NCBI GenBank assembly: GCA_002995645.1
Contig: PUHO01000007.1
Location: 1,356 to 65,355 of the forward strand
Reading direction: 5' to 3'
DNA length: 64,000 nt
From: SAR324 cluster bacterium
GTDB taxonomy: Bacteria; SAR324; XYD2-FULL-50-16; HCM1
Shown: positions 2,240 to 27,507 of the stretch, piece by piece
Layout: every line of letters begins with the position of its first letter
Numbering within the stretch: the first letter of the stretch is position 1
The notes under the pieces: model-generated
What the model was told of the DNA's origin: nothing
The model's input: the letters and a program-made list of their open reading frames with translations, nothing else
The model's database searches: none
Program-made: the position numbers and the translations under genes

Positions 2240-2272
2240 ACAAAAATCAATAAGTAAAAACAAGAGGTTAAA

Positions 2273-4280: not shown

Positions 4281-4295
4281 TTTTAGTCAACTTAT

Positions 4296-4342: not shown

Positions 4343-4375
4343 CATAGATTGTATTGTGTTTCTCATCATGAAAAA

Positions 4376-4395
4376 TACAATACAATACAATACAA
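4376..4395. repeat. (TACAA)x4 pentanucleotide microsatellite upstream of fucI
   Basis: Four perfect TACAA units read directly. ATTGTATTGT at 4348-4357 is complementary to them, giving alternative hairpin registers. Confidence 0.8.
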
Positions 4396-4500
4396 TTAAA
4401 ATAACATATTATATGCGTTACATAATAATAAAATAAGTCAGCTATTTTTAAATATGTTGATGATGAATTCTAACATATTATATTAAAAGGAAAGAATACA

Positions 4501-6294: not shown

Positions 6295-6329
6295 TCAGCA
6301 CGGCAAGTAAATAATACCATATACTAACT

Positions 6330-7760: not shown

Positions 7761-7776
7761 TAAAAAGGATAAAGAA

Positions 7777-8610: not shown

Positions 8611-8611
8611 T

Positions 8612-9037
8612 ATGCTGAAATCTATACCGTCTATAATTAGCCCGGAGCTATTAAAAGCTCTTGCAGAAATGGGGCACGGCGATGAAATAGTTTTAGCTGA
8701 CGCCCATTTCCCGGCTCATAGAATTCATAAGAATGTTATTCGCTGTGACGGCTTAAAAAATACCGATCTTTTAGAAGGAATTATGACTCTTTTTACTTTA
8801 GATGATTATTCTCCGGATAACATTGTAATGATGTCCCCAGTTCCTGGCGATGTTGCTGATAAATCTGTAGCGGATCGTTATTTATCTGCCATAGAAAAGC
8901 ATGAAAAAAATCGGCAAATTACTTTTATTGATCGTTTTGCTTTTTATGATCGTGCTAAAAATGCATATGTTATCATAGTAAGCGGCGAATTAGCAAAATA
9001 TAGTAATATCATTCTTAAAAAGGGGGTGATAACATAA
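8612..9037 (+). CDS. fucU: L-fucose mutarotase (RbsD/FucU family)
   Basis: 141 aa. MLKSIPSIISPELLKALAEMGHGDEIVLADAHFPAH ... FAFYDRAK ... KYSNIILKKGV closely parallels E. coli FucU. Confidence 0.9.
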   Translation: MLKSIPSIISPELLKALAEMGHGDEIVLADAHFPAHRIHKNVIRCDGLKNTDLLEGIMTLFTLDDYSPDNIVMMSPVPGDVADKSVADRYLSAIEKHEKNRQITFIDRFAFYDRAKNAYVIIVSGELAKYSNIILKKGVIT

Positions 9038-9180
9038 AAAAGAATAAGAGGACAAGCTAAGATAATTTTAATTTATTAGATCGATTATGTAATGCTAACT
9101 TCTGATGTGTATAGTAACTATTTGAAATATATTGTTATTCTGTAAGATAAAGTTGTTGGAAGTTGGCGTTACATATGTTT

Positions 9181-10310: not shown

Positions 10311-10318
10311 TTATTACA

Positions 10319-10347
10319 TTGACAAAACTATTTTTATAAGATATAAA
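10319..10347 (+). promoter_or_regulatory. near-consensus sigma70 promoter for tRNA copy 1 (TTGACA-17-TATAAA)
   Basis: TTGACA at 10319-10324, exactly 17-bp spacer, TATAAA at 10342-10347. The tRNA 5' end at 10360 is 13 nt downstream. An A-rich tract lies upstream. Confidence 0.7.
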
Positions 10348-10359
10348 ATAAAAAAATAT

Positions 10360-10436
10360 GGCGAAGTAGCTCAGCTGGCTAGAGCGTACGACTCATAATC
10401 GTAAGGTCGGGAGTTCGACCCTCCCCTTCGCTACCA
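10360..10436 (+). tRNA. tRNA with CAT anticodon (elongator Met, or Ile2 if lysidine-modified), CCA encoded
   Basis: Hand-folded 77-nt cloverleaf. Acceptor is GGCGAAG/CTTCGCT with G1.U72. D stem is GCTC/GAGC. Anticodon stem is TACGA/TCGTA with loop CTCATAA. T arm is GGGAG-TTCGACC-CTCCC, followed by A-CCA. It lacks the initiator hallmarks (no C1xA72, no 3 G-C pairs in the anticodon stem). Confidence 0.9.
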
Positions 10437-10441
10437 ATTTT

Positions 10442-11240
10442 CTTGCCCTCAAATCCCTTAAATTTTATAAGCATAGCCCTTGCTATGAAAACTATTGCTT
10501 GTTACTCGTAGCCAACTGTGACTATGACAACAAGGCTATAATAAAAATAAAACTTGCCTTAAACTCCTTTAATTTCATAAACATAGCCCATACTATGGCA
10601 ACTATTGCTTATTACTCGTAGCCAACTTTGACTATGACAACAAGGAAATAATAAAAATCTAACTTACCTTAAATCCCTTTTAATTTCAAAAACATAGCCC
10701 TTGCTATGGTAACTACTGCTTGCTACTTGTAGCCAACTTTGACTATGACAACAAGAAAATAATAAAAATAAAACTTGCCTCAAATCCCTTTAATTTCATA
10801 AACATAGCCCCTACTATGACAACTACTGCTTATTACTCGTAGCCAACTTTGACTATGACAACAAAGAAATAATAAAAATAAAACTTGCCTTAAATCCCTT
10901 ATAATTTCATAAGTATAGCCCCTACTATGACAACTATTGCTTGTTACTCTTAGCCAACTTTGACTATGACAACAAAGAAATAATAAAAATATAACTTGCC
11001 TCAAATCCCTTATTATTTCATAAACATAGCCCCTACTATGACAACTATTGCTTGCTACTTGTAGCCAACTTTGACCATGACAACTATTACTCGTAGCTAA
11101 CTTTGGCTATTGCAATAAGGAAAAAACTAGGCTATAATAAAAATATAACTTGCCTTGCTTTCGCAAATCCCTTATAATTTTATAAACATACCCCCTGTTA
11201 TGGTAATTATTACCTGTTATCTTAGTTATATAAAGTAAAT
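10442..11240. repeat. tandem array B: six 110/111-bp units plus a degenerate seventh, filling the gap between the two tRNA genes
   Basis: Unit starts (CTTGCCT/CTTACCT) are at 10442, 10553, 10663, 10774, 10884, 10995 and 11149. Each unit has a CATAGCCCCTACTATG mini-hairpin and two ACTATGACAAC-like direct repeats. The sequence 3' of tRNA copy 2 is a degenerate copy of the same unit. Confidence 0.9.
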
Positions 11241-11242
11241 AG

Positions 11243-11319
11243 GGCGAAGTAGCTCAGCTGGCTGGAGCGTACGACTCATAATCGTAAGGTCGGGAGTTCG
11301 ATCCTCCCCTTCGCTACCA
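11243..11319 (+). tRNA. second tRNA(CAT) copy, 2 nt different from copy 1
   Basis: Same cloverleaf as copy 1. The differences are A to G at the last D-loop position (GCTGGAGC) and C to T in the T loop (TTCGATC). CCA is encoded. Confidence 0.88.
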
Positions 11320-11553
11320 ATTTTATTTTCCTTGATTACCTTTAATTTTATATAGATAGCTTGTCGTTACATGATAACTATTGCCTATTTTTTGCTTCCC
11401 CTTTGTTGCTCGTGTTATAAATAAAATTTTGTTATTATATTTTTTAATTAAATCAATTTGATAACTAAATTGATAGTGTAAAATTCTAGCTTGCATTACT
11501 TGCTGTAATGTAGTAATATACAAAATCATACGTATATTTATATTTATTTCACT

Positions 11554-12009
11554 ATGTTAGAACAAAACGCAATTCACGTTGAATTATCATCAACTGCTCT
11601 TTCTATGGATAAAGCGCTTGCGTTCGTTCAAACAGAAGAATACGGCGGCATTGCTAGCTTTATTGGCACAGTAAGAAACCAAAATGAAAATAAAGAAGTC
11701 GAATCGCTTTTTTATGAAGCACACACAAGCTTAGCCCAAAATACGTTAATGGAAATAGCAAACGAAGCGCGTAGCAAATTCTTTCCTGCAAAAGGGAAAA
11801 TATGGATTTCTCATGCACTTGGTAAACTCGCATTAGGCGATAAAGCCGTTATTGTTGCAGTGGCGACAAAGCACCGCGCCGCATGTATGCAAGCTTGCCA
11901 ATATATTATAGAAGAATTAAAACAACGCGCGCCTATTTGGAAACAAGAAAACTACACAAAAGGAGATCAACAATGGCTAGATGGAAAAAGTATTATACCT
12001 ACAGTATAA
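11554..12009 (+). CDS. moaE: molybdopterin synthase catalytic subunit
   Basis: 151 aa. The GGIASFIGTVRN ... YEAH ... ALGD..V.VAV...HR..A..A..YIIEELK..APIWK pattern is typical of MoaE. Confidence 0.85.
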   Translation: MLEQNAIHVELSSTALSMDKALAFVQTEEYGGIASFIGTVRNQNENKEVESLFYEAHTSLAQNTLMEIANEARSKFFPAKGKIWISHALGKLALGDKAVIVAVATKHRAACMQACQYIIEELKQRAPIWKQENYTKGDQQWLDGKSIIPTV

Positions 12010-12698
12010 AATCGCTTTTAGCTCTTTTTTTATTTTGCCACTTCGCTAACGTTGGCTTTGCAAAAGACCTGCACATAGCCGTTGCTTCTAGCTTTTATCA
12101 AACTGCTTCTTTATTAGCCGATGCGTTTCAAAAACAAACGCATATCAAAAGCTCTGTTGTTTTTGCTTCTTCTGGCGTTTTAGTGACAAGATACAAACAA
12201 GGCGCGGACTATGACCTTTTGCTTGTGGCTAATCCGGCGTACCTTAAGAAAATAACTTTTTCTGCTAAAGCTTTAGTTGCTCAAGATCAAGTTGCTTATT
12301 GGAAAGTTGATTCGAAAGTAAAAATTAATTGGGATCAAATGGTTGCGAACTTACAAACAGCACCGGTTGCCTTAGCAAATACAGTCACTGCGCCTTTTGG
12401 TGAGTTTACAAAAAACTTCCTTACACAAAAGCATATTAAAACAAAAAAACAAACTTTAGGAATGAACGAACAAATGACCTATATGCTGGTGAGTAAGAAC
12501 ATGGTAAGTCAAGGGTTTGTTTCTGCTGCGCGGTTAACGAATAAAAAAATAAATAAAGATCATTGGATTACTTTGCCTGTTTATATCCCGCTATGGATTG
12601 CCGTTTTACATCAAAGTAAAGAAGAGGCAAAATACCTTGCTTTTTTGAAAACAAAAACAGCAAAGCAAATTTTGAAAAAACAAGGTTATCAACATTAA
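11973..12698 (+). CDS. modA: molybdate ABC transporter substrate-binding protein
   Basis: The ORF-track frame 11883..12698 is trimmed to the ATG at 11973 (MARWKKYYTYSIKSLLALFLFCHFANVGFA signal peptide). The mature part starts KDLHIAVASSF.., typical of ModA. It overlaps the moaE 3' end. Confidence 0.75.
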   Translation: MARWKKYYTYSIKSLLALFLFCHFANVGFAKDLHIAVASSFYQTASLLADAFQKQTHIKSSVVFASSGVLVTRYKQGADYDLLLVANPAYLKKITFSAKALVAQDQVAYWKVDSKVKINWDQMVANLQTAPVALANTVTAPFGEFTKNFLTQKHIKTKKQTLGMNEQMTYMLVSKNMVSQGFVSAARLTNKKINKDHWITLPVYIPLWIAVLHQSKEEAKYLAFLKTKTAKQILKKQGYQH

Positions 12699-12737
12699 TA
12701 GCGCGGGAAAAACAAGAATGAAGCAAAATAAAGAGAA

Positions 12738-13391
12738 ATGGAAAGCTTTCTAGTTGCCTTATGGCTTTCTTGTAAACTCGCTTTTGTGAGTAGTGCGCTG
12801 CTTAGTGTTATATGCATTCCTCTTGGCTTGTGGTTAGTTTATCCGTCTCGTTGGTGGAAAGAAGCGTTGTTCCTTGTGCTTTCTTTGCCTATGATTTTGC
12901 CACCGACTGTAATCGGTTTCTATTTGCTTCTTTTGTTTGGTAAAGGCGGGTTGTTGGCACCGTTTCATTTTGCGTTTACCTTCCAAGGCATGGTGATTGG
13001 TATGACGATTTTTTCATTGCCGTTTTTTTTGCAAACTTGGGTTTATGCACTCAAACGAATGCAAAGCTGGTATTATGAAGTTTTTTTTCTTGAAGGCGGA
13101 AAATGGATAGGGCTTTTATGTTATATTTGCGTTCCTGCTTTTATATTAGATATGATTGGCGGCTTTATTCTTGCCTTTATTCATGGGATTGGTGAATTTG
13201 GTATGGTGTTTATGGTCGGCGGTGCCATTGCTGGCGAAACAAAAACCGCATCTATCGCCATATTTGAAAAAGTAGCCTTGTTAGATTACAAAGCGGCGCA
13301 TTTGTATTCTTTCATTTTAATTTTAACTACCTTTACTTTACTGATTATCGTTAAATTACTTTTTGAAAAAAGAAAAATACAAACTATTTAA
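12738..13391 (+). CDS. modB: molybdate ABC transporter permease
   Basis: 217 aa with about 5 TM segments. The MetI-like permease core (LPPTVIGFYLL.., EFGMVFMVGG) and position after modA support the call. Confidence 0.8.
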   Translation: MESFLVALWLSCKLAFVSSALLSVICIPLGLWLVYPSRWWKEALFLVLSLPMILPPTVIGFYLLLLFGKGGLLAPFHFAFTFQGMVIGMTIFSLPFFLQTWVYALKRMQSWYYEVFFLEGGKWIGLLCYICVPAFILDMIGGFILAFIHGIGEFGMVFMVGGAIAGETKTASIAIFEKVALLDYKAAHLYSFILILTTFTLLIIVKLLFEKRKIQTI

Positions 13392-13404
13392 TTAATGTAA
13401 AACA

Positions 13405-14634
13405 ATGATTACATACCAAGAAGCAATACAAAAACTGCTAAACGAAGCAGATCGAACATTAGAATCGCAGTTGCTAGATTGGAAAGACGCGCAACGAAGG
13501 ATAGTAGCAAAAGATTGTTATGCACAAATAGACTCGCCGCCGTTTTCTAATGCGGCAATGGACGGGTATGCAGTGCAAGCAAAGAAGCTAGCAAACGCAA
13601 GCAAAGCAAAGCCGGTTATCCTTACAGTGGGGCAAGCTGTTTTTGCAGGTGATACAAAGGAAAATGAAAGCAATGCCGACGCAATTCCCATTATGACAGG
13701 GGCGAAAGTCCCTAAAGGATACGATAGTGTGGTTCGTATAGAAGATACAAAACAAAGGGAGGATTCGCAAGTCGCGTTTTTCACAAAAGTAAAACCAGGT
13801 GAAAACAAGCGCGATAAAGGAACTGATTTTAAACGTGACAGTTTGATACTCAAAAAAGGGGAAGAAGTAACGCCGTTTAACACGCTAAGCGCTATTGCCG
13901 CCGGTATTCGCCAAGTAGAGGTATGGAAAAAAATACGTATAGGACTTGTTGCTACAGGTGATGAAATTGAGTCGGTTACTAACAGCAAACCTTTAACAGA
14001 CGGGCAAATTTACGATAGCAATATGCCGGCGCTCCAAGCGTACCTAGAGGCGCAAGGTTGCGAGGTGGTTCATGTTGGTAAAATTAAAGACTTGCCTAGC
14101 TTATTAGAAACAAAAATACGGTACTTTACACAACAAGAAATAGATATTATAATAACTATAGGTGCGGTTTCTAAAGGTGCAAAAGACTTTATTCCAAGCG
14201 TATTTGAAGCGCAAGGGGCAACTTGTTTGTTTCACAGAGTGGCGATTCGTCCGGGTAAGCCAATATACGCCGGTCTAATGAGAAAAGACAAGCCTATTTT
14301 ATGTTTAGGTTTTCCAGGAAATCCGATTTCTTCGCTAGTTGCCGCCCGTTTTTTCTTGTATCCTTATATACGGCACATACAAGGACTAGCACAAGAAAAG
14401 CCGTTTATTGCTAAGTCGGTTAATTCGTTTCAACGAAAAAATAACCGGTTACGGTATTTCTTAAAAGCAAAGTACGTGGCAACACAAGGAGGCAATATAG
14501 AAGTTAAGATTTTAGACGGACAGGAATCCTATAAAAGTTATCCACTAGTGCAAGCTAATTGTTGGGTGATGGTGCAAGAAGATAAACAAAGCATACAAGA
14601 AGGCGAGCTTGTGACTTGCTATTTAATGTCGTAA
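13405..14634 (+). CDS. moeA: molybdopterin molybdenumtransferase
   Basis: 409 aa. Motifs SPPFSNAAMDGYAV, IMTGA.VP, ATGDE, IYDSN, GAVSKG..DF and VAIRPGKP are characteristic of MoeA/gephyrin E domains. Confidence 0.9.
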   Translation: MITYQEAIQKLLNEADRTLESQLLDWKDAQRRIVAKDCYAQIDSPPFSNAAMDGYAVQAKKLANASKAKPVILTVGQAVFAGDTKENESNADAIPIMTGAKVPKGYDSVVRIEDTKQREDSQVAFFTKVKPGENKRDKGTDFKRDSLILKKGEEVTPFNTLSAIAAGIRQVEVWKKIRIGLVATGDEIESVTNSKPLTDGQIYDSNMPALQAYLEAQGCEVVHVGKIKDLPSLLETKIRYFTQQEIDIIITIGAVSKGAKDFIPSVFEAQGATCLFHRVAIRPGKPIYAGLMRKDKPILCLGFPGNPISSLVAARFFLYPYIRHIQGLAQEKPFIAKSVNSFQRKNNRLRYFLKAKYVATQGGNIEVKILDGQESYKSYPLVQANCWVMVQEDKQSIQEGELVTCYLMS

Positions 14635-14638
14635 ACAA

Positions 14639-15229
14639 ATGCAAAACATAGGTATTGTGTTAGGTGGTGGGAAAAGTTCCCGTATGCAACGAGATAAATT
14701 AACTTTGTCTTGGGATAATACGACGCTTTGGCAACATGCAGAAGCAAAATTGCATAAAGCCAATATGGAAAAGGTATATATAAGCACGCCAAAACAGGTT
14801 ACTTTGCCGCCAAGTGCCAACGTGCTTTACGACGTAACAAAGAACGCCGGTCCTATTGGGGCAGTGCAAGCTGTGTGTGCTAAATACCAAACGCAAGAAG
14901 AGCTGAATATAACGGTGTTACCTGTGGATATGCCTTATATTGAAACGAATTTTCTTTTGTCGTTAAAGAAAAAACTAGACTTGGTAACTGACGGCAATGC
15001 GGTTAGTGTGGAAAATTTTTATTTTCCTTGTATATTACATATGAATAGCCAGTCAAAAAAAAAGATAACTTCGTTTATTGGAAAACCGTGGCATAGCTTT
15101 TTGCAAGCTTTATCTGTTCACTACCTTCCATTGACAAAGCAAGAAGAAGAAAAGTTTTTAAATATAAACCATTTAGCAGATTATATATTTTTATATAAAG
15201 GAAAGGTACATGATAAAATTAATCCTTGA
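14639..15229 (+). CDS. mobA: molybdenum cofactor guanylyltransferase
   Basis: 196 aa. It has the N-terminal GIVLGGGKSSRM nucleotide-binding motif, GPIGA and LPVDMP motifs. It follows moeA by 4 nt. Confidence 0.8.
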   Translation: MQNIGIVLGGGKSSRMQRDKLTLSWDNTTLWQHAEAKLHKANMEKVYISTPKQVTLPPSANVLYDVTKNAGPIGAVQAVCAKYQTQEELNITVLPVDMPYIETNFLLSLKKKLDLVTDGNAVSVENFYFPCILHMNSQSKKKITSFIGKPWHSFLQALSVHYLPLTKQEEEKFLNINHLADYIFLYKGKVHDKINP

Positions 15230-15527
15230 GGAAAATAAAATACGAATACGTTTACTTCCGGAAGATGCGGACGCTTTACTTAACGAGCAAATACTAACAA
15301 GAAAACTATTTTTGCCAAGTGGGCAAGAATTGACAATAGAAGTATCACCATGTAAGTTTCCAAAACCAATAGAAGAAAAAGAAGGGATAATCCGTGTTTT
15401 TGTTGATTTTATGCAACTACAAGAATTACAAGTACCGTCTAAGAAAGGGGTTTTACTCACAAAGACGCCAGTTGATATTTTTATAGAAATAGACATGAAA
15501 CAACGTAAACCGGATCAAGGTAAATAG
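15210..15527 (+). CDS. hypothetical protein between mobA and napD
   Basis: 105 aa with a good SD (AAAGGAAAGG). It overlaps the mobA 3' end by 20 nt and stops 1 nt before napD. I recognise no motif. Confidence 0.45.
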   Translation: MIKLILEENKIRIRLLPEDADALLNEQILTRKLFLPSGQELTIEVSPCKFPKPIEEKEGIIRVFVDFMQLQELQVPSKKGVLLTKTPVDIFIEIDMKQRKPDQGK

Positions 15528-15528
15528 T

Positions 15529-15777
15529 ATGAGTATTATGGGCGCGTTAATCCAAGTAAAAGAAGAAGGAAAAGAACAAATTAGGACTTTTCTAGAAACG
15601 CAAATTAATGTTAAGATACTAGGAGAGAACGATAAACATGAAATGGCTATTGTTATAAACGAACCAAATGAAAATATATTTTTGCAAACAATAGAAAGTA
15701 TAAACGCGCAAGAGCACATTATTGCGTTTAATTACACAGAACATTATAGTGAAGACGCTGTACAAGAAGAATCATGA
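15529..15777 (+). CDS. napD: NapA-specific chaperone NapD
   Basis: 82 aa. FLQTIESINAQEHIIAFNYTEHY parallels E. coli NapD LIQTIESVRNVEGVLAVSLVYHQ. It lies immediately upstream of napA. Confidence 0.7.
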   Translation: MSIMGALIQVKEEGKEQIRTFLETQINVKILGENDKHEMAIVINEPNENIFLQTIESINAQEHIIAFNYTEHYSEDAVQEES

Positions 15778-15809
15778 TCATTAATGTTTATTTTTTAACG
15801 AGATAGAAT

Positions 15810-18317
15810 ATGAAAAGAAGAGAATTTTTAGAAGGGTTAGCAAGTGCTTCTGCTTTAGCCGCATTATCTTCGGGATTGGCTAAACCGGCCATTGCGGCAA
15901 CACAATATAAGAGTCGGTATACCGATAGAAATTTAAGATGGGATAAAGCAGTATGTCGTTTTTGCGGAACCGGTTGCGGCGTTATGGTTGGCGTAAGACG
16001 TAACAAAGTAGTAGCAACAAAAGGCGATGCTAAAAATCCGGTGAATCGTGGTATGACTTGCATTAAAGGCTATTTCTTGTCTCACATTTTATACGGTAAA
16101 GACAGATTGACTTCGCCCTTGCTTCGTATGAAAAACGGGCAATATGACAAGAACGGTGAATTTGAACCGGTTTCATGGGATAAAGCACTAGACTTAATGG
16201 CGGAAAAATTCATTGAAGCCATACAAAAGAAAGGACCTACTTCAGTCGGCATGTTTGGTTCCGGACAATGGACTATTTTTGAAGGATATGCGGCGGTTAA
16301 GTTAATGAAAGCCGGTTTTTTATCTAATAACATTGATCCGAATGCAAGGCATTGTATGGCGTCGGCAGTTGCCGCCTTTGTTCGTACTTTTGGTGCAGAT
16401 GAACCAATGGGGAACTATAAAGATTTTGAAGAAGGTGAAAACTTTGTTCTTTGGGGATCTAATATGGCGGAAATGCACCCTATATTATGGTCAAGAATAG
16501 CGCATACTCGTATGAGTAAACCAAATAGCTCAGTACACGTTCTTTCAACTTATCGCCACCGTTGTTTTGATTTGTCTGATAACGATATTATTTTTAAACC
16601 GCAAAGTGACCTTGTGATTGCTAATTATATTGCTAATTATATTATCAAAAGTGATAAAGTAAATAGCGACTTTATTTCAAATCATACTACGTTTAAAAAA
16701 GTAACTACTGATATAGGTTACGGGTTAAGACCAACGCACTTGCTAGAAAAAAAAGCAAAAAATCCTGGCAACGGCGCTATGCATGATATTGACTTTGAAG
16801 AATATAAAAAACATGTGTCTACTTATACGCTAGAAAAAACGGCGGCTTTTACAGGCGTACCGGAGAAGAGATTACAAAAGCTAGCTGAACTATATGCGGA
16901 TCCAACAAAAAAAGTCGTATCTTTATGGACAATGGGCGTGAATCAACACGTACGCGGAACGTGGATGAATCATTTAATCTATAATTTACATTTATTGACC
17001 GGCAAGATTTCTATGCCCGGGAATAATCCTTTTTCTTTAACAGGACAACCGTCTGCTTGTGGAACGGCAAGGGAAGTAGGCACGTTTGCACATCGCTTGC
17101 CTGCTGATTTAGTTGTAGCAAATCCGGCACATAGAGCTGTTGCCGAAAAGATTTGGAAACTGCCTAAAGGTGCGGTTAATCCTAAAGTAGGCTATCATGC
17201 TGTGTTGCAAAGTCGTATGTTAAAAGACGGCAAGCTAAACGTATATTGGTCCATGTGTAACAACAATATGCAAGCCGCGCCGAACATGGATAAAGAAACC
17301 TACCCTGGTTGGCGTAATCCGGAAGCATTTGTTATTGTATCCGATCCTTATCCTACTGTGTCCGCTATGGCGGCAGATTTGATTTTGCCAACTGCAATGT
17401 GGGTGGAAAAAGAAGGGGCTTACGGTAATGCTGAGAGACGAACTCAATTTTGGTATCAACAAGTTGCACCGAATAAGAACGTTAAGTCCGATTTATGGCA
17501 AATTATATCTTTAGCAAAACGTATTCCTGTTGCTAAAATTTGGTCAAAAGAATTATTAGCGCAAAAGCCGGCGTATCAAGATAAAACCTTATATGATATT
17601 TTATTTGCAAACGGACAAGTGAATAAATACCCACTTTCAAAAGCAAGTAAGCATGCCGGTAATCATGAAGCGGAAGCCTTTGGTTATTATGTACAAAAAG
17701 GATTGTTTGAAGAATATAGACGTTTTCAACAAGAAGGACCTAAAACAGGACATGAACAAGCGCCTTTTGATGAGTATATGAAAGTAAGAGGTCTTGTTTG
17801 GCCATATATTAACGGGAAAGAAGTTTTTTGGCGTTATAGAGAAAATTACGATCCAATGGTGAAAGAAGGGCAAAACCTGGCGTTTTATGGTAATCCAGAT
17901 AAAAAAGCAAGAATTGTGTTTGCACCGTACGAACCGGCAGCAGAAGAACCGAATGCAGAATATCCTATTTGGTTAACTACCGGAAGGGTGCTTGAACATT
18001 GGCATACAGGAAGTATGACTCAACGAGTGCCGGAGCTATTCCAAGCCATGCCAAGAGCTGTTCTTTATCTTAATATTAACGATGCGTTAAAATATAAATT
18101 ACACAGAGGCGAAGCAGTTCGCATTAGCTCTAGACGTGGATCTATTCAAGCAGTTGTGGAGACGCACGGAAGAAATAAAATGCCACAAGGCGTTGCTATG
18201 ATGCCGTTTTTTGATGCTAAACATTTAGTGAATAAACTAGTGTTAGACGCAACGGACCCTATTTCTAAAGAAACGGATTTTAAGAAAGTAGCTATTAAAA
18301 TAGAAAAAATAAATTAA
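15810..18317 (+). CDS. napA: periplasmic nitrate reductase catalytic subunit
   Basis: 835 aa. It has a twin-arginine signal ([30 protein letters not shown]) and an N-terminal 4Fe-4S motif CRFCGTGCG...C. Mo-bisMGD enzyme blocks run throughout ([35 protein letters not shown]). Confidence 0.97.
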
Positions 18318-18332
18318 CTATATAGGATTATT

Positions 18333-18758
18333 ATGAAATATACAATTATGTTAATAGCAAGTGCGCTATGTTTTTCTAGTAGTAGCCTTTTTGCTTCGCA
18401 ACCTATGTCTTTGCGAGGTAATACGAAAATTACAGAAGAAAAAGAAGCAAAAGTCGTTTTTATGGGAGTGCAAAGCGACAAAGATAAATTTCGCCGTACT
18501 TTGCACCAAGCGCCTATGATTCCTCATCCCATAGATCACTATGTTATAACAAAAGCTAAAAATAGTTGTTTAGTTTGTCATGCAAAAGCAAAAAGTCAAG
18601 TGTCACCGGAAGAGATTAAAAAAGGTGCCGTGTTTTTTTCAGATACCCATTTGTTGAATCGTGATAACGAGCAAAAAGTGTTATTAGATAATCGTTGGTA
18701 TTTTTGCAATCAATGCCATGCAATACAACATAATACTGAAAAATTACAAAAAAAATAA
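18333..18758 (+). CDS. napB: periplasmic nitrate reductase dihaem cytochrome c subunit
   Basis: 141 aa with a signal peptide and two CxxCH motifs (CLVCH, CNQCH). It lies directly after napA. Confidence 0.85.
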   Translation: MKYTIMLIASALCFSSSSLFASQPMSLRGNTKITEEKEAKVVFMGVQSDKDKFRRTLHQAPMIPHPIDHYVITKAKNSCLVCHAKAKSQVSPEEIKKGAVFFSDTHLLNRDNEQKVLLDNRWYFCNQCHAIQHNTEKLQKK

Positions 18759-18779
18759 TTATATTTTAAGGTAGTACAA

Positions 18780-19349
18780 ATGGGAAGGAAAAAAAATATA
18801 AAAAAGACTATAATCATTACTCTTGGAATAGGCGTGTTTCTTAGTATTATTGGCTTTGTGATTTTAAAGCAAAGTATTGATTACACAAATAAAACCGAGT
18901 ATTGTTTAAGTTGCCATGAACCGCTACGAGATAGCTATCTATCTTCGTCACATGGGCAAAATAAAACGGGAATACAAGTACAATGTGTAAGTTGTCATGC
19001 TCCGTTAATGGAAAACGATATAGAAAATTTATCACATAAATTCTTAGCGTTAAAACGACCGGTAGCCAAGTTTTTTGGTGCATTAAAGACGGAAGACGAC
19101 TTTAATAACAAAAGATTAGAAATGGCAACAAACGTTTGGCAATGGATGAAGAAGAGCCCGGAAGAAGGGTGCCGATCTTGTCATAGTTTTAAACATATGG
19201 ATTTAACTAAGCAAGAGTCAAGGGCAGTGCAACACCATTTGAAAGCAGCAAAGAATGGACAGACTTGTATTGCATGCCATGCCGGCATTGTTCACGGTAT
19301 GATGGAAGGCGGCGTGAAAAAACATCACGAATTATTCTGGTCGCATTAA
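18780..19349 (+). CDS. napC: membrane-anchored tetrahaem cytochrome c, NapC/NirT family
   Basis: 189 aa with an N-terminal TM helix and four CxxCH motifs (CLSCH, CVSCH, CRSCH, CIACH). Confidence 0.9.
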   Translation: MGRKKNIKKTIIITLGIGVFLSIIGFVILKQSIDYTNKTEYCLSCHEPLRDSYLSSSHGQNKTGIQVQCVSCHAPLMENDIENLSHKFLALKRPVAKFFGALKTEDDFNNKRLEMATNVWQWMKKSPEEGCRSCHSFKHMDLTKQESRAVQHHLKAAKNGQTCIACHAGIVHGMMEGGVKKHHELFWSH

Positions 19350-19364
19350 GAAGAGAGAAAGCCT

Positions 19365-19895
19365 TTGTTTTTACGAAACAAACGACGTAACGGTGCGAGT
19401 TTACGACGTTTTTTAACAGGTGCGGCTTTCTTTCCAATAAGCGCGCTTCCTTGGCGTAAAGAGGCAGAGGTTTTTCTTGATCATTGTAAAAAGAAGCAAT
19501 GTTATCAATGTATTGACCTTTGCCCTGAAAAAGTGCTTGTGCCAACGGTGCAAGGTTTGCCGGCTATGGACTTTAGCAAGAACGGTTGTAGCTTTTGCGG
19601 CAAATGCGCCACGGTTTGCCCGGAGAATTTATTTTTTCCTATAACAACCAAGCCGTGGGATTTAGTAGTTAGCTTTGTGAAAGAAGATTGCGTTGCTTTT
19701 GCTAACGTACATTGCCGTAGTTGTGAAGAGGTTTGCGATCAAGACGCGATTAGCTTTATTGCGCAAGATGACGGTAGTCCAAGCAAGCCGTCTATAGATT
19801 TGGCAAAGTGTAACGGTTGCGGTAAGTGTGTTGCCCCTTGTATGACAGGTGCGTTGCGCGTTACGTCTGCAGATAAACTTTTTTTTCTTCAGTAG
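19365..19895 (+). CDS. napF: ferredoxin-type iron-sulfur protein NapF
   Basis: 176 aa with a TTG start in the ORF track. It has an N-terminal RRFLTG motif and Cys clusters CYQCIDLCP, CSFCGKCATVCP, CRSCEEVCD and CNGCGKCVAPC, collinear with E. coli NapF. Confidence 0.8.
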   Translation: MFLRNKRRNGASLRRFLTGAAFFPISALPWRKEAEVFLDHCKKKQCYQCIDLCPEKVLVPTVQGLPAMDFSKNGCSFCGKCATVCPENLFFPITTKPWDLVVSFVKEDCVAFANVHCRSCEEVCDQDAISFIAQDDGSPSKPSIDLAKCNGCGKCVAPCMTGALRVTSADKLFFLQ

Positions 19896-20995
19896 TAGCC
19901 TGTACTAGCTTTGCTTACTTCTCTCGATCTGCCTTGCTCTTCTTTGCCCCGCCCGCATTAGCTTTGCTTATTTCCTTTATTCCACCTTGTCTTTTTCTTT
20001 CCTTACTTTGATTACTTTGCTTGCTATGCTCGTATTCGCCCTGCTTGTTTCTTTTTCTTTCTTGTTTTGCTTTTTCCACTTGCTTCGCCTTGCCGTTTTC
20101 TTGAATTGCTCGCACTCGCCTTGCCGTTGTATTACTTCGTTTGTATTAGCATATTTCCCTTCTAACTTCGCTTTTTCCCTTGCTCTGCCTTATCTTTTCT
20201 TTGCCCCGCCCGCATTAACTTTGTTCCCTTGCTCTTCCTTACCCTGCCTTATCTTTTCTTTTCCCCGCCCGCACTAGCTTTGTTCTTTTGCTCTTCCTTG
20301 CCCCGCCCGCATTAACTTTGTTCTTTTGCCACGCCTTGCCGTTTTCTTGCATTGCCCGCATTAGTTTTGCTTACTTCTCTCGATCTTCCTTGCTCTTTCT
20401 TGCTACGCCCGCATTAGCTTTATATTCTTGCCTCGTCTTTTTCTTTCATTCTAAAGAGTTATTAAAAGTATAAAAAATCTATGGTGAATATGTAGAAGTT
20501 TTGCTTGCCTCGTTCGAACTAGTTTTTCCCCCTTGCTCTGCTCCGCTTTTTTTCTTCCTTACTCTTCCTTGCTCTGCCCGCATTAGCTTTCATCTCTGCT
20601 AACTTCGCTTCTGCCTTACTCTGCATTGCCCGTAGTCGCCCTGCTTACTTCTCTCGATCTGCCTTGCTCTTCTTTGCTCCGCCCGCACTAGTTTTTCCCC
20701 CTTGCTCTGCTCCGCTTTTTTTCTTCCTTACTCTTCCTTTCCCCGCCCGCATCAGCTTTCATCTCTGCTAACTTCGCTTTTTTCCTTACTCTGCATTGCC
20801 CGTAGTCGCCCTGCTTACTTCTCTCGATCTGCCTTGCTCTTCTTTGCTCCGCCCGCACTAGTTTTTTCCCCTTGCTCTGCTCCGCTTTTTTTCTTCCTTA
20901 CTCTTCCTTGCTCTGCCCGCACTAGCTTTTATCTCTGCTAACTTCGCTTTTCCCCCTTGCTATGCCCGCATTAGCTTTGTTCTTTTCTCTCATTT
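19896..20995. repeat. 1.1-kb polypyrimidine-rich (+ strand) repeat block with ~12 copies of GCCCGCA(T/C)TA(G/A)(C/T)TTT and a ~170-bp higher-order repeat
   Basis: Motif starts are at 19951, 20208, 20267, 20305, 20354, 20407, 20576, 20681, 20745, 20851, 20915 and 20964. The variant GCCCGTAGTCGCC occurs at 20628 and 20798. The 170-bp period is seen from 20576/20745/20915, 20681/20851 and 20628/20798. In three 60-nt lines I counted, the + strand is 78-85% C+T. A short AT-rich interruption lies at ~20450-20510. Confidence 0.9.
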
Positions 20996-21162: not shown

Positions 21163-21191
21163 TTGACAAGCGATTCGTATTATTGTATGAT
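21163..21191 (+). promoter_or_regulatory. candidate sigma70 promoter of the phage-like head operon (TTGACA-17-TATGAT)
   Basis: TTGACA at 21163-21168, 17-bp spacer, TATGAT at 21186-21191, 37 bp upstream of the ATG at 21228. Two further ATTGACA motifs lie at ~21024 and ~21114. TATTATTG is present at 21158 and 21178, with its inverse CAATAATA at 21136. Confidence 0.5.
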
Positions 21192-21227: not shown

Positions 21228-23033
21228 ATGAATAGATCATTAACAATAGAAAGGTTATCTAAACATAATAAACAGCAAATAATTAACTATTTACGTGCCA
21301 ATAAAAGTTATCAAGAAATAGCTGAGATATGCCATAAAACAGGAATGCCTTTAAAAGTAGGAGTCGCAGCGTTACGTAACTACGATACAAAATACAAAAT
21401 ATCTAAACAAGGTAAGGAACGAGCTAAGAAAATACAAGAAAATTTGACTAACGTAAAGCAAAAGCAACCGATAGAAGGTAACTTGCCTACATCGTTAAAA
21501 ATAGAAAAATTATCTAAACATAATAAACAGCAAATAATTAACTATTTACGTGCCAATAAAAGTTATCAAGAAATAGCTGAGATATGCCATAAAACAGGAA
21601 TGCCATTAAAAGTAGGAGTCGCAGCGTTACGTAATTACGATACAAAATACAAAATATCTAAACAAGGCAAGGAATGGGCTAAGAAAATAGAAGAGAATTT
21701 GCCCAAGGTAAAGCAAAAGCAACCGATAGAAGGGATTTATAGTAACTTGCCTACATCGTTAAAAATAGAAAAAATACCTAAACATGATAGGCAGCAAATA
21801 ATTAACTATTTACGTAACAATAAAAGTTATCAAGAAATAGCTGAGATATGCCATAAAACAGGAATGCCATTAAAAGTAGGAGTCGCAGCGTTACGTAACT
21901 ACGATACAAAATACAAAATATCTAAACACGGCAAGGAACGAGCTAAGCAAATAGAAGAAAATTTGCCCAAGGTAAAGCAAAAGCAACCTATAGAAGGTAA
22001 CTTGCCTACGTCGTTAAAAATAGAAAAATTATCTAAACATGATAGACAGAAAATAATTAACTATTTACGTGCCAATAAAAGTTATCAAGAAATAGCTGAG
22101 ATAGGCAATAAAGCAGGAATGCCTTTAAAAGTAGGGGTCGCAGCGTTACGTAACTACGATACAAAATACAAAATATCTAAGCAAGGCAAGGAACGGGCTA
22201 AGAAAATAGAAGAAAATTTGACTAACGTAAAGCAAAAGCAACCGATAGAAGGGATTTATAGTAACTTGCCTACGTCGTTAAAAATAGAAAAATTACCTAA
22301 ACATAATAAACAGCAAATAATTAACTATTTACGTACCAATAAAAGTTATCAAGAAATAGCTGAGAGATGCCATAAAACAGGAATGCCCTTAAAAGTAGGG
22401 GTCGCAGCGTTACGTAACTACGATACAAAATACAAAATATCTAAACGAGCTAAGCAAATAGAAGAAAATTTGCCCAAGGTAAAGCAAAAGCAACCTATAG
22501 AAGGGATTTATAGTAACTTGCCTACGTCGTTAAAAATAGAAAAATTACCTAAACATGATAGGCAGCAAATAATTAACTATTTACGTGCCAATAAAAATTA
22601 TCAAGAAATAGCTGAGATATGCCATAAAACAGGAATGCCATTAAAAGTAGGAGTCGCGGCGTTACGTAACTACGATACAAAATACAAAATATCTAAACAA
22701 GGCAAGGAACGAGCTAAGAAAATAGAAGAAAATAATCGTCTTTGCTTGCCCAAGGTAAAGCAAAAGCAACCTATAGAAGGGATTTATAGTAACTTGCATC
22801 TATCGTTAATACAATTGATTTCACAACTAGAGGCAAAAGTACAATCGCCAAAAAGCAAGAAAGATCAGTTAAACGAAGTCAACATTTTATATAAAGTATC
22901 GCAAATGTTAAAACTACTTTCTTCAAATCAAGAAATCATAGGAACCGCCACCTCGGAAGAGACAGAGCAAAAACGGAAAGTAAATAGTAAGCATTTAAGG
23001 AAAGCAATCACGTCTATATACGGGAAAATATAG
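21228..23033 (+). CDS. tandem-repeat protein in the small-terminase position: six ~86-aa HTH-like modules plus a unique C-terminal tail
   Basis: 601 aa. Module starts are at nt 21228, 21480, 21744, 21999, 22263 and 22515 (periods 252/264/255/264/252/276, all multiples of 3). The unique tail starts at 22791. Module consensus is NLPTSLKIEKLxKHxxQQIINYLRANKSYQEIAEICHKTGMPLKVGVAALRNYDTKYKISKQGKERAKKIEENLxxVKQKQPIEG. As I recall it, this resembles the N-terminal HTH of Mu gp27/DUF3486 small terminases (SKIDxLPxxxxxxIxxLLxxGxSxxEIxxxLxxxGxxVSxSALxRY). It lies directly upstream of terL. Confidence 0.6.
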   Translation: MNRSLTIERLSKHNKQQIINYLRANKSYQEIAEICHKTGMPLKVGVAALRNYDTKYKISKQGKERAKKIQENLTNVKQKQPIEGNLPTSLKIEKLSKHNKQQIINYLRANKSYQEIAEICHKTGMPLKVGVAALRNYDTKYKISKQGKEWAKKIEENLPKVKQKQPIEGIYSNLPTSLKIEKIPKHDRQQIINYLRNNKSYQEIAEICHKTGMPLKVGVAALRNYDTKYKISKHGKERAKQIEENLPKVKQKQPIEGNLPTSLKIEKLSKHDRQKIINYLRANKSYQEIAEIGNKAGMPLKVGVAALRNYDTKYKISKQGKERAKKIEENLTNVKQKQPIEGIYSNLPTSLKIEKLPKHNKQQIINYLRTNKSYQEIAERCHKTGMPLKVGVAALRNYDTKYKISKRAKQIEENLPKVKQKQPIEGIYSNLPTSLKIEKLPKHDRQQIINYLRANKNYQEIAEICHKTGMPLKVGVAALRNYDTKYKISKQGKERAKKIEENNRLCLPKVKQKQPIEGIYSNLHLSLIQLISQLEAKVQSPKSKKDQLNEVNILYKVSQMLKLLSSNQEIIGTATSEETEQKRKVNSKHLRKAITSIYGKI

Positions 23034-23058: not shown

Positions 23059-24354
23059 ATGAAGCCACTTTTACCATTATACGACTACCAAAAGAATTGG
23101 CTTACAGATAAAAGCCGTTTCAAAATCGGTATGTTTGCAAGGCAAACAGGCAAAACGTTTATAACAACACTAGAAATTGTCTTAGCCTGTTTGCAAGCAG
23201 AAATAGAAGGAAAAGCAACAAAATGGTTAATCATATCAAGGTCTTTACGGCAAGCAAAAGAGGCGATGCAAGACGTGTATCAACATGTGCAAGTAATGGA
23301 TACTTTTTATAAAGCCTATCAATGGCATATTCCAACAGGAGAAAAAAATATAATGGAGTGGCAACTTCCCCATGGAAGCCGTGTTATTGCTTTGCCTGCT
23401 AATGCAGATACAATCAGAGGCTATTCAAGTAACGTGTTGCTAGATGAATTTGCTTTTCACCAAGATCTAGCAAGTATCTGGTCGGCTGTTTTTCCTATTA
23501 TATCATCAGGTAAACGTATGCTTATTGTCTCTACGCCAAACGGAACGAATAATTATTTTTATGAAATAATGACAAATAAACAAAACCTGTGGAGCCGGCA
23601 TATTGTGGATATTTACCAAGCAAAGCAAGGCGGCTTGCCAAGAGATATTAAAGAAATGAAAAAGGCAGTGCTAGATTCGTACGTATGGCAACAAGAATAC
23701 GAATTGAAATGGCAACAAGAAGGGGAAAGCTGGATTGCAAAAGAATTGATTAAGTTAGTGCAAGATCCGCTTGCCGGCGTGCCTACGGCGTATGAAGGGA
23801 ACGAGTGTTTTATTGGCGTAGATATAGCGAGAAGGAACGATTTTTTTGTTATTGTTGTTTTAGAAAAATGCCAAGGCGTTTTGTGGTGTCGTGAGATTAT
23901 AGCAATGCAAAATACTTCTTTTCAAGAACAGGCAGATTTACTTTCAAATTGTATTTATAAATATAACGTTGTTAGTGTGTGTATGGATCAAACCGGCATG
24001 GGAGAAATGCCGGTGGAAGAAGCAAAAAAGAAGCATGGCAATATGATTCAAGGAATCCTAATGACACAAAAGAAAAAATACGATCTTGCCGTTATAGGAA
24101 AAATGCATTTTGAGCAAGAAACAAGCAAGCTACCGTGCGATAGGATTCTTGAAGAAGATATACAGTCTATTAGAAGGAAAGTAGCGTTAAACGGAGAGGT
24201 ACAACTTTATACAGAGCGAACAAAACAAGGGCACGGAGATAGAGCATGGGCGCTATTGTTAGCAACACAAGCAGCGTCGGGAAGGGAAGAAATCACATAT
24301 AATTATTATACTGTAGATTCGGGATCTCTATTTAATCAAAACAAATTTATGTAA
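23059..24354 (+). CDS. terminase large subunit (Mu gp28-like)
   Basis: 431 aa with a strong SD (AAGGAGG). It has Walker A-like ARQTGKTF, Walker B LLDEFAFH and a C-terminal nuclease-type HGDRAWAL motif. Confidence 0.88.
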   Translation: MKPLLPLYDYQKNWLTDKSRFKIGMFARQTGKTFITTLEIVLACLQAEIEGKATKWLIISRSLRQAKEAMQDVYQHVQVMDTFYKAYQWHIPTGEKNIMEWQLPHGSRVIALPANADTIRGYSSNVLLDEFAFHQDLASIWSAVFPIISSGKRMLIVSTPNGTNNYFYEIMTNKQNLWSRHIVDIYQAKQGGLPRDIKEMKKAVLDSYVWQQEYELKWQQEGESWIAKELIKLVQDPLAGVPTAYEGNECFIGVDIARRNDFFVIVVLEKCQGVLWCREIIAMQNTSFQEQADLLSNCIYKYNVVSVCMDQTGMGEMPVEEAKKKHGNMIQGILMTQKKKYDLAVIGKMHFEQETSKLPCDRILEEDIQSIRRKVALNGEVQLYTERTKQGHGDRAWALLLATQAASGREEITYNYYTVDSGSLFNQNKFM

Positions 24355-24696
24355 AAGAAACGTAGGCAACTTTATACAGAGCGAACAAAACAAGGGCACA
24401 GAGATAGAGCAAGGGCGCTATTGTTAGCAACACAAGCGGCGGCGGTAAGGGAAGAAATCACATATAATTATTATACTGTAGATTCGGGATCTCTATTTAA
24501 TCAAAACAAATTTATTTAAAAGAAACGTAGGCAACTTTATACAGAACGAACAAAACAAGGGCACGGAGATAGAGCATGGGCGCTATTGTTAGCAACACAA
24601 GCGGCGGCGGGAAGGGAAGAAATCACATATAATTACTATACTGTAGATTCGGGGTCTCTATTTAATCAAAACAAATTTATTTAAAAGAAACGTATG
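24202..24696 (+). repeat. exact-period 3 x 165-bp tandem triplication of the terL 3' end plus the terL-portal junction
   Basis: The units are 24202-24366, 24367-24531 and 24532-24696. Copies 2 and 3 still read QLYTERTKQGH(R/G)DRA(R/W)ALLLATQAAA..EEITYNYYTVDSGSLFNQNKFI-stop in the terL frame. The position of the portal ATG (24694) reads AGG in the two upstream copies. Confidence 0.95.
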
Positions 24697-25875
24697 CAAC
24701 CTATTTTTAAGAATAAACCGGTCATGGAACAAGAAATTTTTACAAATTGTATTGTAAAAAACAAACTAGAAGAATTGACCTGTACAAAGCAAAAATTAAC
24801 GCCAGCAAGATTAAAGCGTATTTTAGAAGAGTCAGACAGAGGCAATAACGAGCAAATGCTTGACCTTGCAAAAGAAATGGAAGAGCAAGAACCGCACTAT
24901 GCGGGCGTCTTAGCAGTACGCAAAAGAGCGATTACTTCCCTTCCTATGCGTATAGACAAAATAAACGAGTTCCCACAAGAAATGGGCGATTTACTTAAAC
25001 AAGTAATAAACGATCCTTGTTTTGGTCATATGTTAGAAGACGCACTAGACGCGCTAGGAAAAGGGTATAGTGTGATTGAAATTATATGGCAAAGAAAAAA
25101 AGGTTTTTGGATACCGAAAGAATACGTCTGGAAAGATCAAAAGCTATTTCAAATTGATATGAACAGTCGTAACAAAGTGTATTTTATAGGTAAAGAAAAA
25201 AAGCAGCTAATCCCGCAATATAAAGCTATTGTGCATTTACATAAATTGAAAAGCGAAGTGACTGCAAACGGCGGATTAGCAAGGTTAGTTTCGTTTAACT
25301 ATATGTGTAAAAACTTTACGCTACAAAGTTGGATGCGTTTTCTTGAACTATTTGGGCAACCGCTTAGGTTGGGAAAATATGCAAAAGGAGCAAAAGAACA
25401 AGATATAGCGGTGTTGAAAAAAGCAGTTTCCTATATAGGAAGCGATGCGGCGGCAGTAATACCGGAAAATATGCAAATTGAATTTGTCCAATCACTACGA
25501 AGTGGGAACGCAGAAATATTTGAAGATCTGGCAAGGTGGCTAGATGAACAAATATCAAAAGCCGTGTTAGGGCAAACCATGACCAGCGATAGCGGAAGCA
25601 GCTTTTCCCAAGCAAAAGTGCACAATGAAGTAAGGCAAGATATTTGTCGTGCTGACACAATGCATTTAGCAAGGACACTTAACAAAGACCTAATTAAAGC
25701 GATTGTAGATATTAATTTTGGAGAACAAACAATATATCCGCAATTTTGTTTTGCATTACCAACGAAAATAGACGCGCAAAGCGTGTTGGAAAGCGTTAAA
25801 ACGCTTATTCCACTAGGCTTGAACGTGGATCTTGATGCGGTTGCGAAAATGCTTAACATTCCTGTTAGTAAATAA
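24694..25875 (+). CDS. portal protein (Mu gp29-like, DUF935 type)
   Basis: 393 aa. LTPARLKRILEESDRGNNEQMLDLAKEMEEQEPHYAGVLAVRKRAI matches the conserved N-terminal DUF935 pattern as I recall it. It sits after terL. It is shorter than Mu gp29 (~510 aa). Confidence 0.8.
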   Translation: MQPIFKNKPVMEQEIFTNCIVKNKLEELTCTKQKLTPARLKRILEESDRGNNEQMLDLAKEMEEQEPHYAGVLAVRKRAITSLPMRIDKINEFPQEMGDLLKQVINDPCFGHMLEDALDALGKGYSVIEIIWQRKKGFWIPKEYVWKDQKLFQIDMNSRNKVYFIGKEKKQLIPQYKAIVHLHKLKSEVTANGGLARLVSFNYMCKNFTLQSWMRFLELFGQPLRLGKYAKGAKEQDIAVLKKAVSYIGSDAAAVIPENMQIEFVQSLRSGNAEIFEDLARWLDEQISKAVLGQTMTSDSGSSFSQAKVHNEVRQDICRADTMHLARTLNKDLIKAIVDINFGEQTIYPQFCFALPTKIDAQSVLESVKTLIPLGLNVDLDAVAKMLNIPVSK

Positions 25876-26564: not shown

Positions 26565-27299
26565 TTAAAGTAAGACTGTTTTACAAATCGCACGACCAAG
26601 AACTTGGAGTTGATCAAACGATTCTCTAGGGATAAAAATCTTTTCATATTCTTGGTTCGCACTGATTAAAGTAAGCCCGTCGCTACGAAGTTGCGTTGAT
26701 TTACAATAGATTCGATTGTCAAAGTATAGAATATAAATACAACCGTCTTCTAGGTTTTTATCTGCTGTGTTAATTAATACTTTATCCCCGGGGCTAAGTA
26801 TAGGCGACATAGAATTACCTTGAATAGTAATAACATGCGCCGACGCAGTATAGATCCCGAATTCTTCAAGAAAACGCCTAGGAACGGCAAGACGCTTTTC
26901 CGTTTCATCAGAAGCAAGGAAATTGCCGGTGCCGGCAGAAGCGTATACGTCGTCGCGAATAGTGATATACGCCATATCTTGCGTATTAGAAGAAGGAAGC
27001 AAGCCTTCGTCCGGCGGTTCGAGTGTTACCACGTCCATCATAGTGTCGTGATATTTCATAGAGGTTGATTCAAGGTAATCAAGACCGGTATATTCTTTTT
27101 CTTTAGCAGGGAGTTTGCCAGTAGCAAGCCATTGTAAAGAAACGTTAGCAACGTTGGCAATACGAACGGCTTTGTCAATAGACGGCATAGATCCGTGTAA
27201 GTATTTGTGTAATGTAGTAGAGGTTAAATTACATTCTTTTGCAAATTGACGTAAACTTTTGTCGCCAATAGCAATTTTTAATCTTTCAGAAAAACTCAT
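26565..27299 (-). CDS. CI/LexA-like repressor: N-terminal XRE-type HTH plus C-terminal S24 autopeptidase
   Basis: The HTH is SLRQFAKECNLTSTTLHKYLHG..PSIDKAVRIANVANVSLQWLATG. The S24 motifs are GNSMSP (Ser nucleophile) and YCKSTQL...L.SAN (Lys). The start is trimmed to the ATG at 27299 (MSFSERLK); the ORF-track start at 27308 is TTG. Confidence 0.85.
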   Translation of the reverse strand: MSFSERLKIAIGDKSLRQFAKECNLTSTTLHKYLHGSMPSIDKAVRIANVANVSLQWLATGKLPAKEKEYTGLDYLESTSMKYHDTMMDVVTLEPPDEGLLPSSNTQDMAYITIRDDVYASAGTGNFLASDETEKRLAVPRRFLEEFGIYTASAHVITIQGNSMSPILSPGDKVLINTADKNLEDGCIYILYFDNRIYCKSTQLRSDGLTLISANQEYEKIFIPRESFDQLQVLGRAICKTVLL

Positions 27300-27507
27300 A
27301 ATGAACAAAAAGAAGGAGGTCTATTAAATAAGGACTAGGTAACTCACGTTCGCGTTGGTACTAATAAAACGAAAATGAAGGCATGTAATTCTATGATTAG
27401 CAAAACTCTATTTTATATAGATCAAGAAGGATTGTAAAGGAAATATATAGGAACAAGAATAGACGCGGTTAGTATAAAAATTAAATTGTAAAAACAAAGA
27501 AAAGCAT

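Follow-up and report, generated by a model that had tools for sequence, protein, structure and literature searches.

The window analysed in this work is a stretch of 64,000 nt from a SAR324 cluster bacterium (NCBI assembly GCA_002995645.1, contig PUHO01000007.1), and all positions given below are those of the window. It carries a Mu-like head-tail gene cluster of ∼20 kb (21000-41053), which is located between a nap operon (15810-19895) and aroA/thrC. The first gene of the cluster is an open reading frame (ORF) of 601 aa directly upstream of terL, the gene for the large terminase subunit (TerL), i.e., in the position where related clusters encode gp27, the putative small terminase subunit (TerS). 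The product consists of six tandem, near-identical modules that resemble a helix-turn-helix (HTH) unit, followed by a unique tail. What is directly seen at this locus is a constrained, open, six-module basic protein in the gp27 slot.

The 601-aa ORF and its module array

The 601-aa product has a mass of 69.4 kDa and an isoelectric point of ∼10. Its ATG start codon is preceded by an AAGGA box located 4 nt upstream, and a sigma-70-like promoter match is found 37 nt upstream of the ATG (Table 1). Tandem Repeats Finder detected the array at 21236-22809 with a period of 255, 6.0 copies, 89% matches and a score of 2431. The module lengths range from 252 to 267 nt (84-89 aa), each a multiple of 3. 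The copies have diverged by 3-8% at the nucleotide level, and the protein identity among the six modules is 86-94%. The tail (residues 523-601, nt 22794-23030) is non-repeated and all-helical by AlphaFold prediction. A preliminary description of this DNA had reported six modules of 84-92 aa (252-276 bp, all in frame) and a tail of ∼80 aa; these dimensions are right within the boundary definitions used, and the frame of the repeats was also as described. The sole Met of each module sits within the HTH. Production of a normal-size, one-module TerS by internal initiation was considered and ruled out, as none of the module boundaries carries an ATG, GTG, or TTG.

The module copies evolved under protein-level constraint after duplication, since the indels are in frame, the frame is open, pN/pS is low, more synonymous changes are seen than expected, and the protein sequence of helix 3 does not vary. 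The length differences between copies are 9, 12, and 12 nt, so that all three are in frame. Across the array there is no stop codon in the ORF frame vs. 30-79 in each of the other five frames. A comparison of dN/dS among the modules, which had been suggested in the preliminary description, gave a pairwise proportion of synonymous differences (pS) of ∼0.14 vs. ∼0.04 for nonsynonymous differences (pN), with an overall pN/pS of 0.31. We also used a spectrum-matched null model, in which the observed mutation spectrum was redistributed at random over the consensus module. Synonymous changes accounted for 15 of the 35 distinct changes vs. 7.6 expected under this model (P = 0.004); stop-creating changes were not seen vs. 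∼2 expected. Helix 3 (LKVGVAALRNYDTK) of the AlphaFold2 (AF2) model, the presumed recognition helix, shows three synonymous changes and no amino acid change among the copies. The repeated 3′ end of terL (see below) was tried as a neutral control for dN/dS and dropped, with only nine coding-frame changes. The closest module pairs are non-adjacent: modules 3 and 6 differ by 8 nt and modules 3 and 5 by 9 nt, but modules 3 and 4 by 20 nt. Because the most similar pairs are not neighbours and the variant residues are distributed as a mosaic across the copies, the data suggest sequence exchange among the modules.

The start of terL is only 25 nt downstream of the ORF. Even the best homologues of TerL in a set of 5.8 billion proteins share only ∼50% identity with it. 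The gene context was compared with that of four TerL relatives, one from an Acinetobacter metagenome-assembled genome (L001) and three from metagenomic contigs (L002/3, L004/5, and L006). The gene directly 5′ of terL encodes one PF11985 gp27 of 182-190 aa in 4/4 relatives. The gene order in the relatives is (DUF2730)-small ORF-gp27-terL-portal, with portals of 482-499 aa; in L002 and L006, whose contigs extend far enough, the portal is followed by Mu F. Since all four relatives have gp27 directly upstream of terL, the 601-aa gene occupies exactly the gp27 slot. This agrees with the terS position assigned in the preliminary description, which had also considered that a separate conventional terS might lie nearby; no second gp27-type ORF was found in any frame of the window.

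Table 1. Positions of the module array and of associated features in the window
Feature	Position	Strand	Description
Candidate binding-site array	19951..20978	+	12 same-strand copies of GCCCGCAYYARYTTT
Promoter match	21163..21191	+	sigma-70-like, TTGACA-17-TATGAT
601-aa ORF	21228..23033	+	six tandem HTH modules and unique tail, in the gp27 (small terminase) slot
Module 1	21228..21494	+	repeat unit starts at 21240, 255 nt; N-terminus MNRSLTIERLS in register with gp27 N-terminus MARxSAIxxLP
Module 2	21495..21758	+	repeat unit starts at 21495, 264 nt; 88 aa
Module 3	21759..22013	+	repeat unit starts at 21759, 255 nt; 85 aa
Module 4	22014..22277	+	repeat unit starts at 22014, 264 nt; 88 aa
Module 5	22278..22529	+	repeat unit starts at 22278, 252 nt; 84 aa, in-frame 12-nt deletion
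Module 6	22530..22793	+	repeat unit starts at 22530, 267 nt; in-frame 12-nt insertion (NRLC)
Tail	22794..23033	+	unique, 79 aa, basic, helical, and stop; putative oligomerisation/TerL-binding part, gp27 homology not demonstrated
terL	23059..24354	+	Mu gp28-type, N and C domains intact (PF03237 and PF17289)
Tandem repeat of terL 3′ end	24202..24696	+	165 bp, three copies: last 50 terL codons, stop, and 12-nt spacer
Portal	24694..25875	+	Mu gp29-type, 393 aa, ∼90 C-terminal residues fewer than relatives

In addition to the gp28-type terL and the gp29-type portal, the cluster encodes a DUF2730 protein, an S24/CI- or LexA-type repressor (minus strand, 26565-27308), and a DUF3164 protein. The protease gpI, the major head protein gpT, gp36, sheath, tube, and a DNA-circulation protein are also present, as are the baseplate proteins gp44-48, a fibre, and a fibre-assembly protein. 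The tape-measure position is occupied by an ORF of only 306 aa.

Comparison of the module and the tail with gp27

An alignment of 33 gp27 proteins (A1) served as the source of a profile hidden Markov model (HMM) and for hhalign comparison. The module aligned with the gp27 alignment from gp27 residue 1 onward (E = 5.8e-5, probability 66%). In a six-frame scan of the window with the gp27 HMM, the 601-aa ORF was the only match at E < 1 (E = 2e-5), and six domains were found in it, each at HMM positions ∼5-77. Five modules scored 10.7-11.7 bits and module 4 only 5.3; the best of 2000 shuffled modules scored 8.4. The N-terminal pattern shared by the module and gp27 is MxRxS.I..LP ... Y.ei.e.....G ... 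a.l.rY. Module plus tail also gave weak matches to PHROG 426 "terminase small subunit" (E = 0.014) and to TIGR01558 (P27-type TerS; E = 0.013). The whole-protein profile E-values (Sigma70_r4_2, 2e-13; PHROG 426, 4e-11; TIGR01558, 8e-9) were discounted, because they are inflated by the sixfold repetition; the single-module values were 0.01-0.05. We conclude that the module is likely, albeit with weak support, to be remotely homologous to the DNA-binding domain of gp27.

We modelled module 6 plus tail by AF2, using only the six modules as alignment and no gp27 information. Helices were predicted at residues 11-23, 27-37, 41-54, and 59-75 of the module and at 85-108, 113-142, and 146-169 of the tail. 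The gp27 model, with a predicted local distance difference test (pLDDT) score of 80 overall and 91-97 in the HTH, shows helices at 12-24, 30-39, and 46-76, followed by 83-108, 115-168, and 173-183. The predicted helix order of one module plus tail (170 aa) is colinear with that of one gp27 (182-190 aa). The three-helix unit in the module was predicted at a pLDDT of only 57-63, and the accompanying HTH-family matches are weak; tail helices 85-108 and 113-142 were predicted at 74-83. The Pro/Lys/Gln linkers between the HTHs are predicted to be disordered (pLDDT < 50). Judged from these models, the amplified unit would correspond to the HTH of gp27 together with the fourth helix and the linker.

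The likeness of the tail to gp27 residues ∼80-185 is limited to the predicted helix order; hhalign of the tail vs. gp27 gave a probability of 0.15%. The tail end IYGKI looked suggestive next to the gp27 ends VYG[VLI] or ILGIA, and was rejected as a homology signal: the score of an HMM of the C-terminal block was equalled by 556/5000 shuffles.

Origin of the six copies and possible explanations

Tandem arrays with units of 90-390 bp account for ∼10% of the window. Those counted are three large intergenic arrays (9184-11084, 43720-44387, and 59954-61125) and the arrays at 19.9-21.0, 21.2-22.8, and 24.2-24.7 kb. The copies of the tripled terL 3′ end (Table 1) are 96% identical, with no coding function in copies 2 and 3. 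The portal start codon at 24694 comes from copy 3, the only one that ends with CGTATG; the other two end with CGTAGG. The microhomology CAAC.TAT is common to the junctions of this repeat. Because of the non-coding terL 3′ copies and the many other tandem arrays, we concluded that this genome makes such duplications regardless of function. The six copies in the 601-aa ORF are best seen as having a mundane mutational origin: one duplication event of this kind, or a series of them, was tolerated or favoured, and the resulting module array was maintained thereafter. As side observations on the other arrays, one of them lies between two tRNA-Met genes (10360 and 11243), the only genes found in an Rfam scan of the window, and a 334-bp repeat of two copies extends from the 5′ end of thrC across the intergenic region into the 3′ end of the ORF at 44084-45241.

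The ORF probably encodes a gp27-type TerS whose DNA-binding segment was amplified sixfold by the repeat-generating process of the genome and which then kept evolving as a translated protein. In this reading, the ∼20-kb Mu-like head-tail cluster has no transposase and the gene is its gp27-type terS. Its N-terminal segment of ∼85 aa (three-helix HTH, fourth helix, and Pro/Lys/Gln linker) would have given rise to six in-frame tandem copies, most likely by slippage or unequal recombination, as for the other 90-390-bp arrays of the genome, while the C-terminal helical part would have stayed single. The tail may oligomerise and contact TerL, as is the case for the C-terminal part in other TerS proteins. 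With six basic HTHs on flexible linkers, each subunit could then have covalent multivalency for DNA and more avidity for repeated or extended packaging-initiation sites.

A number of results weigh against this assignment. PF11985 gave no match at E ≤ 10 for the single module, the tail, or module plus tail; its gathering threshold (28 bits) was not reached, and it is absent from the top families of the full protein. The gp27 homologue of L001 scores 130 bits on the same profile. Generic HTH families match as well as TerS families do (HTH_38 for a single module, E = 0.05; sigma-70 region 4 for module plus tail, E = 0.01). The gp27/DUF3486-type HTH claimed in the preliminary description stands above chance, by hhalign and by an HMM score that none of the 2000 shuffles reached, but falls short of family assignment. 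Pairwise BLASTP gave no significant match to gp27 of L001 or L006. The similarity of the tail to gp27 is not significant either, with a gp27 HMM score of 0.8 bits that was equalled by 973/2000 shuffles. Structure prediction, which had also been proposed as a check, returned the helix order of gp27, but the model of module 6 plus tail is of low confidence (pLDDT 59), and Foldseek of this model against PDB and BFVD gave nothing at E < 0.8. Nor does gp27 have a solved relative: PDB sequence searches with the module profile and with the gp27 profile gave no matches, and Foldseek of the gp27 model against PDB matched no TerS structure. The TerS role of gp27 has itself been assigned from gene position and annotation. 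Finally, all evidence comes from a single contig and is at the sequence level.

The state of the cluster also bears on the assignment. No MuA/MuB, Mu F (gp30), or lysis genes were found at ∼21.0-41.05 kb or elsewhere in the window, and the portal is short at its C-terminus by ∼90 residues. The block order is scrambled compared to the relatives: terS-terL-portal, DUF2730 and a 62-aa ORF, repressor (minus strand), 99-aa ORF, DUF3164, and protease/head/tail. A working packaging function of the cluster is not assured. These features, together with the abundance of tandem arrays and the tripling of the terL 3′ unit to no coding purpose, would be expected if the array were a by-product of decay in a defective prophage, neutral and with no working terminase role. 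We consider this unlikely, as the copies have diverged in nucleotides yet contain no stop or frameshift, show more synonymous changes than expected, and have a helix 3 without amino acid change; in addition, terL and the other structural ORFs are of full length, and their Pfam domains are complete.

The matches to generic HTH families, the tail without detectable gp27 likeness, and the rearrangement of the cluster could also fit a multi-HTH transcription regulator or a nucleoid-type DNA-binding protein that came to lie beside terL only through cluster rearrangement; the only other protein matched in the exhaustive search described below carries five IS3-type HTHs. Against such a non-terminase role, which appears improbable to us, are the tight, conserved-like spacing to terL, the gp27 slot that is invariant in the four relatives, the alignment from gp27 residue 1, the colinearity of module plus tail with gp27 in predicted helices, and the lack of any other gp27-type terS candidate in the window. 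It is very unlikely that the six copies result from an assembly artefact, in which the assembler over-traversed the repeat or chained strain variants and the true number of modules is lower. The six-copy count does come from one assembly, a single 79.6-kb NCBI contig without a relative at ≥90% identity that would provide a second genome for comparison, and units of 252-267 nt at 89-94% identity are hard for short reads. However, no two of the six copies are the same, the in-frame indels and substitutions being specific to individual copies, and one frame is kept across the junctions; misassembly also collapses repeats more often than it expands them.

If the 601-aa protein is an amplified gp27-type TerS, it would touch on an unsettled question, namely how TerS rings reach sequence-specific recognition with weakly binding HTHs, for which avidity has been proposed (PMC9611059). 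With six HTHs in a single chain, such a natural TerS would lend itself directly to testing the role of avidity, and intragenic tandem amplification would be seen to be capable of reshaping a core virion-assembly protein. Should the element be domesticated, the protein could decide which host DNA is transferred, which at this stage is a prospect only.

Known small terminases and the upstream motif array

The 601-aa protein is an orphan among ∼15 billion proteins. A word-indexed search of 5.8 billion proteins detected no relative, and exhaustive phmmer against 1.84 billion representatives matched the protein itself and one unrelated protein (P0002, 258 aa), which has five tandem IS3-transposase-type HTH units and is encoded on a Logan metagenome contig of 2055 bp. 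P0002 is an independent case of HTH-domain amplification. Myb proteins likewise contain tandem HTH units, which read extended or repeated DNA. Both P0002 and the Myb-type proteins resemble the protein described here in having several HTHs per chain and differ from it in belonging to unrelated families with no link to packaging. No relative was found in IMG/VR and JGI metagenome contig scans; tblastn against 50,697 phage genomes gave a single match at E = 1, and an exact-sequence look-up of genomic context returned no record. Single-module or other multi-module relatives, the search for which had been proposed earlier, were thus found in none of the protein, viral, metagenome, or phage-genome searches. 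All window proteins looked up are singletons at 90% identity, which indicates that the collection contains no sequenced close relative of the host lineage.

The nearest known counterpart is Mu gp27 (PF11985, formerly DUF3486). The 601-aa ORF shares with it the position directly 5′ of a gp28-type terL, the HTH aligned from the first residue, and, for module plus tail, the length and predicted helix order. It differs in that the first ∼85 aa are present six times rather than once, the Pfam threshold is not reached, and no homology is detectable in the C-terminal part. The 78 gp27 clusters that were retrieved all range from 152 to 203 aa vs. 601 aa and six HTH modules here, and no TerS with tandemly repeated HTHs was found in the literature searched, which is consistent with the preliminary description, where no terminase of this design was known.

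A phage TerS protomer has a mass of 15-21 kDa and combines a single HTH at the N-terminus with a helical-hairpin core for oligomerisation and a C-terminus that varies; 8-12 subunits assemble into a ring, and the avidity of the oligomer may amplify binding (PMC9611059). Multivalent display of HTHs is a common principle of ring-forming TerS (PMC9611059; PMC4737164). Similar to such proteins (SF6/SPP1 G1P, Sf6 gp1, P22 gp3, PaP3, P74-26, and HK97), the protein described here is predicted to have an N-terminal HTH, a flexible linker, and a helical hairpin-like C-terminus. The multivalency of the known proteins is derived from rings only, with one HTH in a protomer of 15-21 kDa (PMC9611059), whereas here six HTHs are present in a chain of 69 kDa. 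The models proposed for TerS recognition (nucleosome-like wrapping, threading, and others) all have weaknesses according to a 2022 review (PMC9611059). The TerS of Bacillus phages Sam46 and Sam112, a fusion of FtsK_gamma and Terminase_2 (PMC8190038), is the nearest precedent found for an enlarged TerS DNA-binding region. It has an extra N-terminal DNA-binding domain; this is a single foreign winged-helix domain acquired by fusion, in contrast to the tandem amplification of the protein's own HTH segment here.

The 15-nt motif GCCCGCAYYARYTTT is present in 12 copies 250-1280 bp 5′ of the 601-aa gene, at an irregular spacing of 38-257 bp, vs. 0.12 copies expected by chance; none was found elsewhere in the window. 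The array, which has the nap operon on one side and the Mu-like cluster on the other, occupies the left edge of the element and falls within a tract that is pyrimidine-rich on the plus strand and has a G+C content of 42-51% vs. 35% for the window. Its position recalls the left-end pac site of Mu. In phage lambda, repeated TerS-binding sites for gpNu1 (cosB R1-R3) are found just 5′ of the terS gene. The lambda cosB site has been described previously (PMC4669245). Both arrangements have repeats 5′ of terS, but the lambda sites are bound by TerS whereas GCCCGCAYYARYTTT is a candidate motif, irregularly spaced, in a genome where unrelated arrays are common. A specific link between array and gene has a low prior for the latter reason, and the array as target of the six HTHs is speculative.

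It is doubtful, and in our view improbable, that the six linked HTHs act as a "single-chain" TerS DNA-binding ring that reads the 12-copy array and sets the start of headful packaging of a domesticated, transposase-less Mu-like particle. The wrapping of the motif array and the control of packaging by a gene transfer agent (GTA), both raised in the preliminary description, are speculation. The TerS of RcGTA (gp1, rcc01682) has no N-terminal DNA-binding domain (PMC6854486). It serves a phage-like element that has been domesticated and does not replicate (PMC6854486), as may be the case for the element here; the DNA-binding domain is absent there vs. present in six copies here. A single-chain ring, if true, would be the opposite solution to that of RcGTA, whose TerS lost its DNA-binding domain.

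Between the motif array and the start codon, an AT-rich stretch of 230 bp contains three ATTGACA boxes (21024, 21118, and 21163) and a 24-nt direct repeat (21082/21130), which may be candidate operator/activator sites of the cluster promoter. The left flank of the element (716-19895) is devoted to host metabolism and carries a sugar ABC transporter, a fucose operon (fucI, fucK, fucA, and fucU), molybdate uptake and moeA/mobA genes, and napAB-type nitrate reductase genes.

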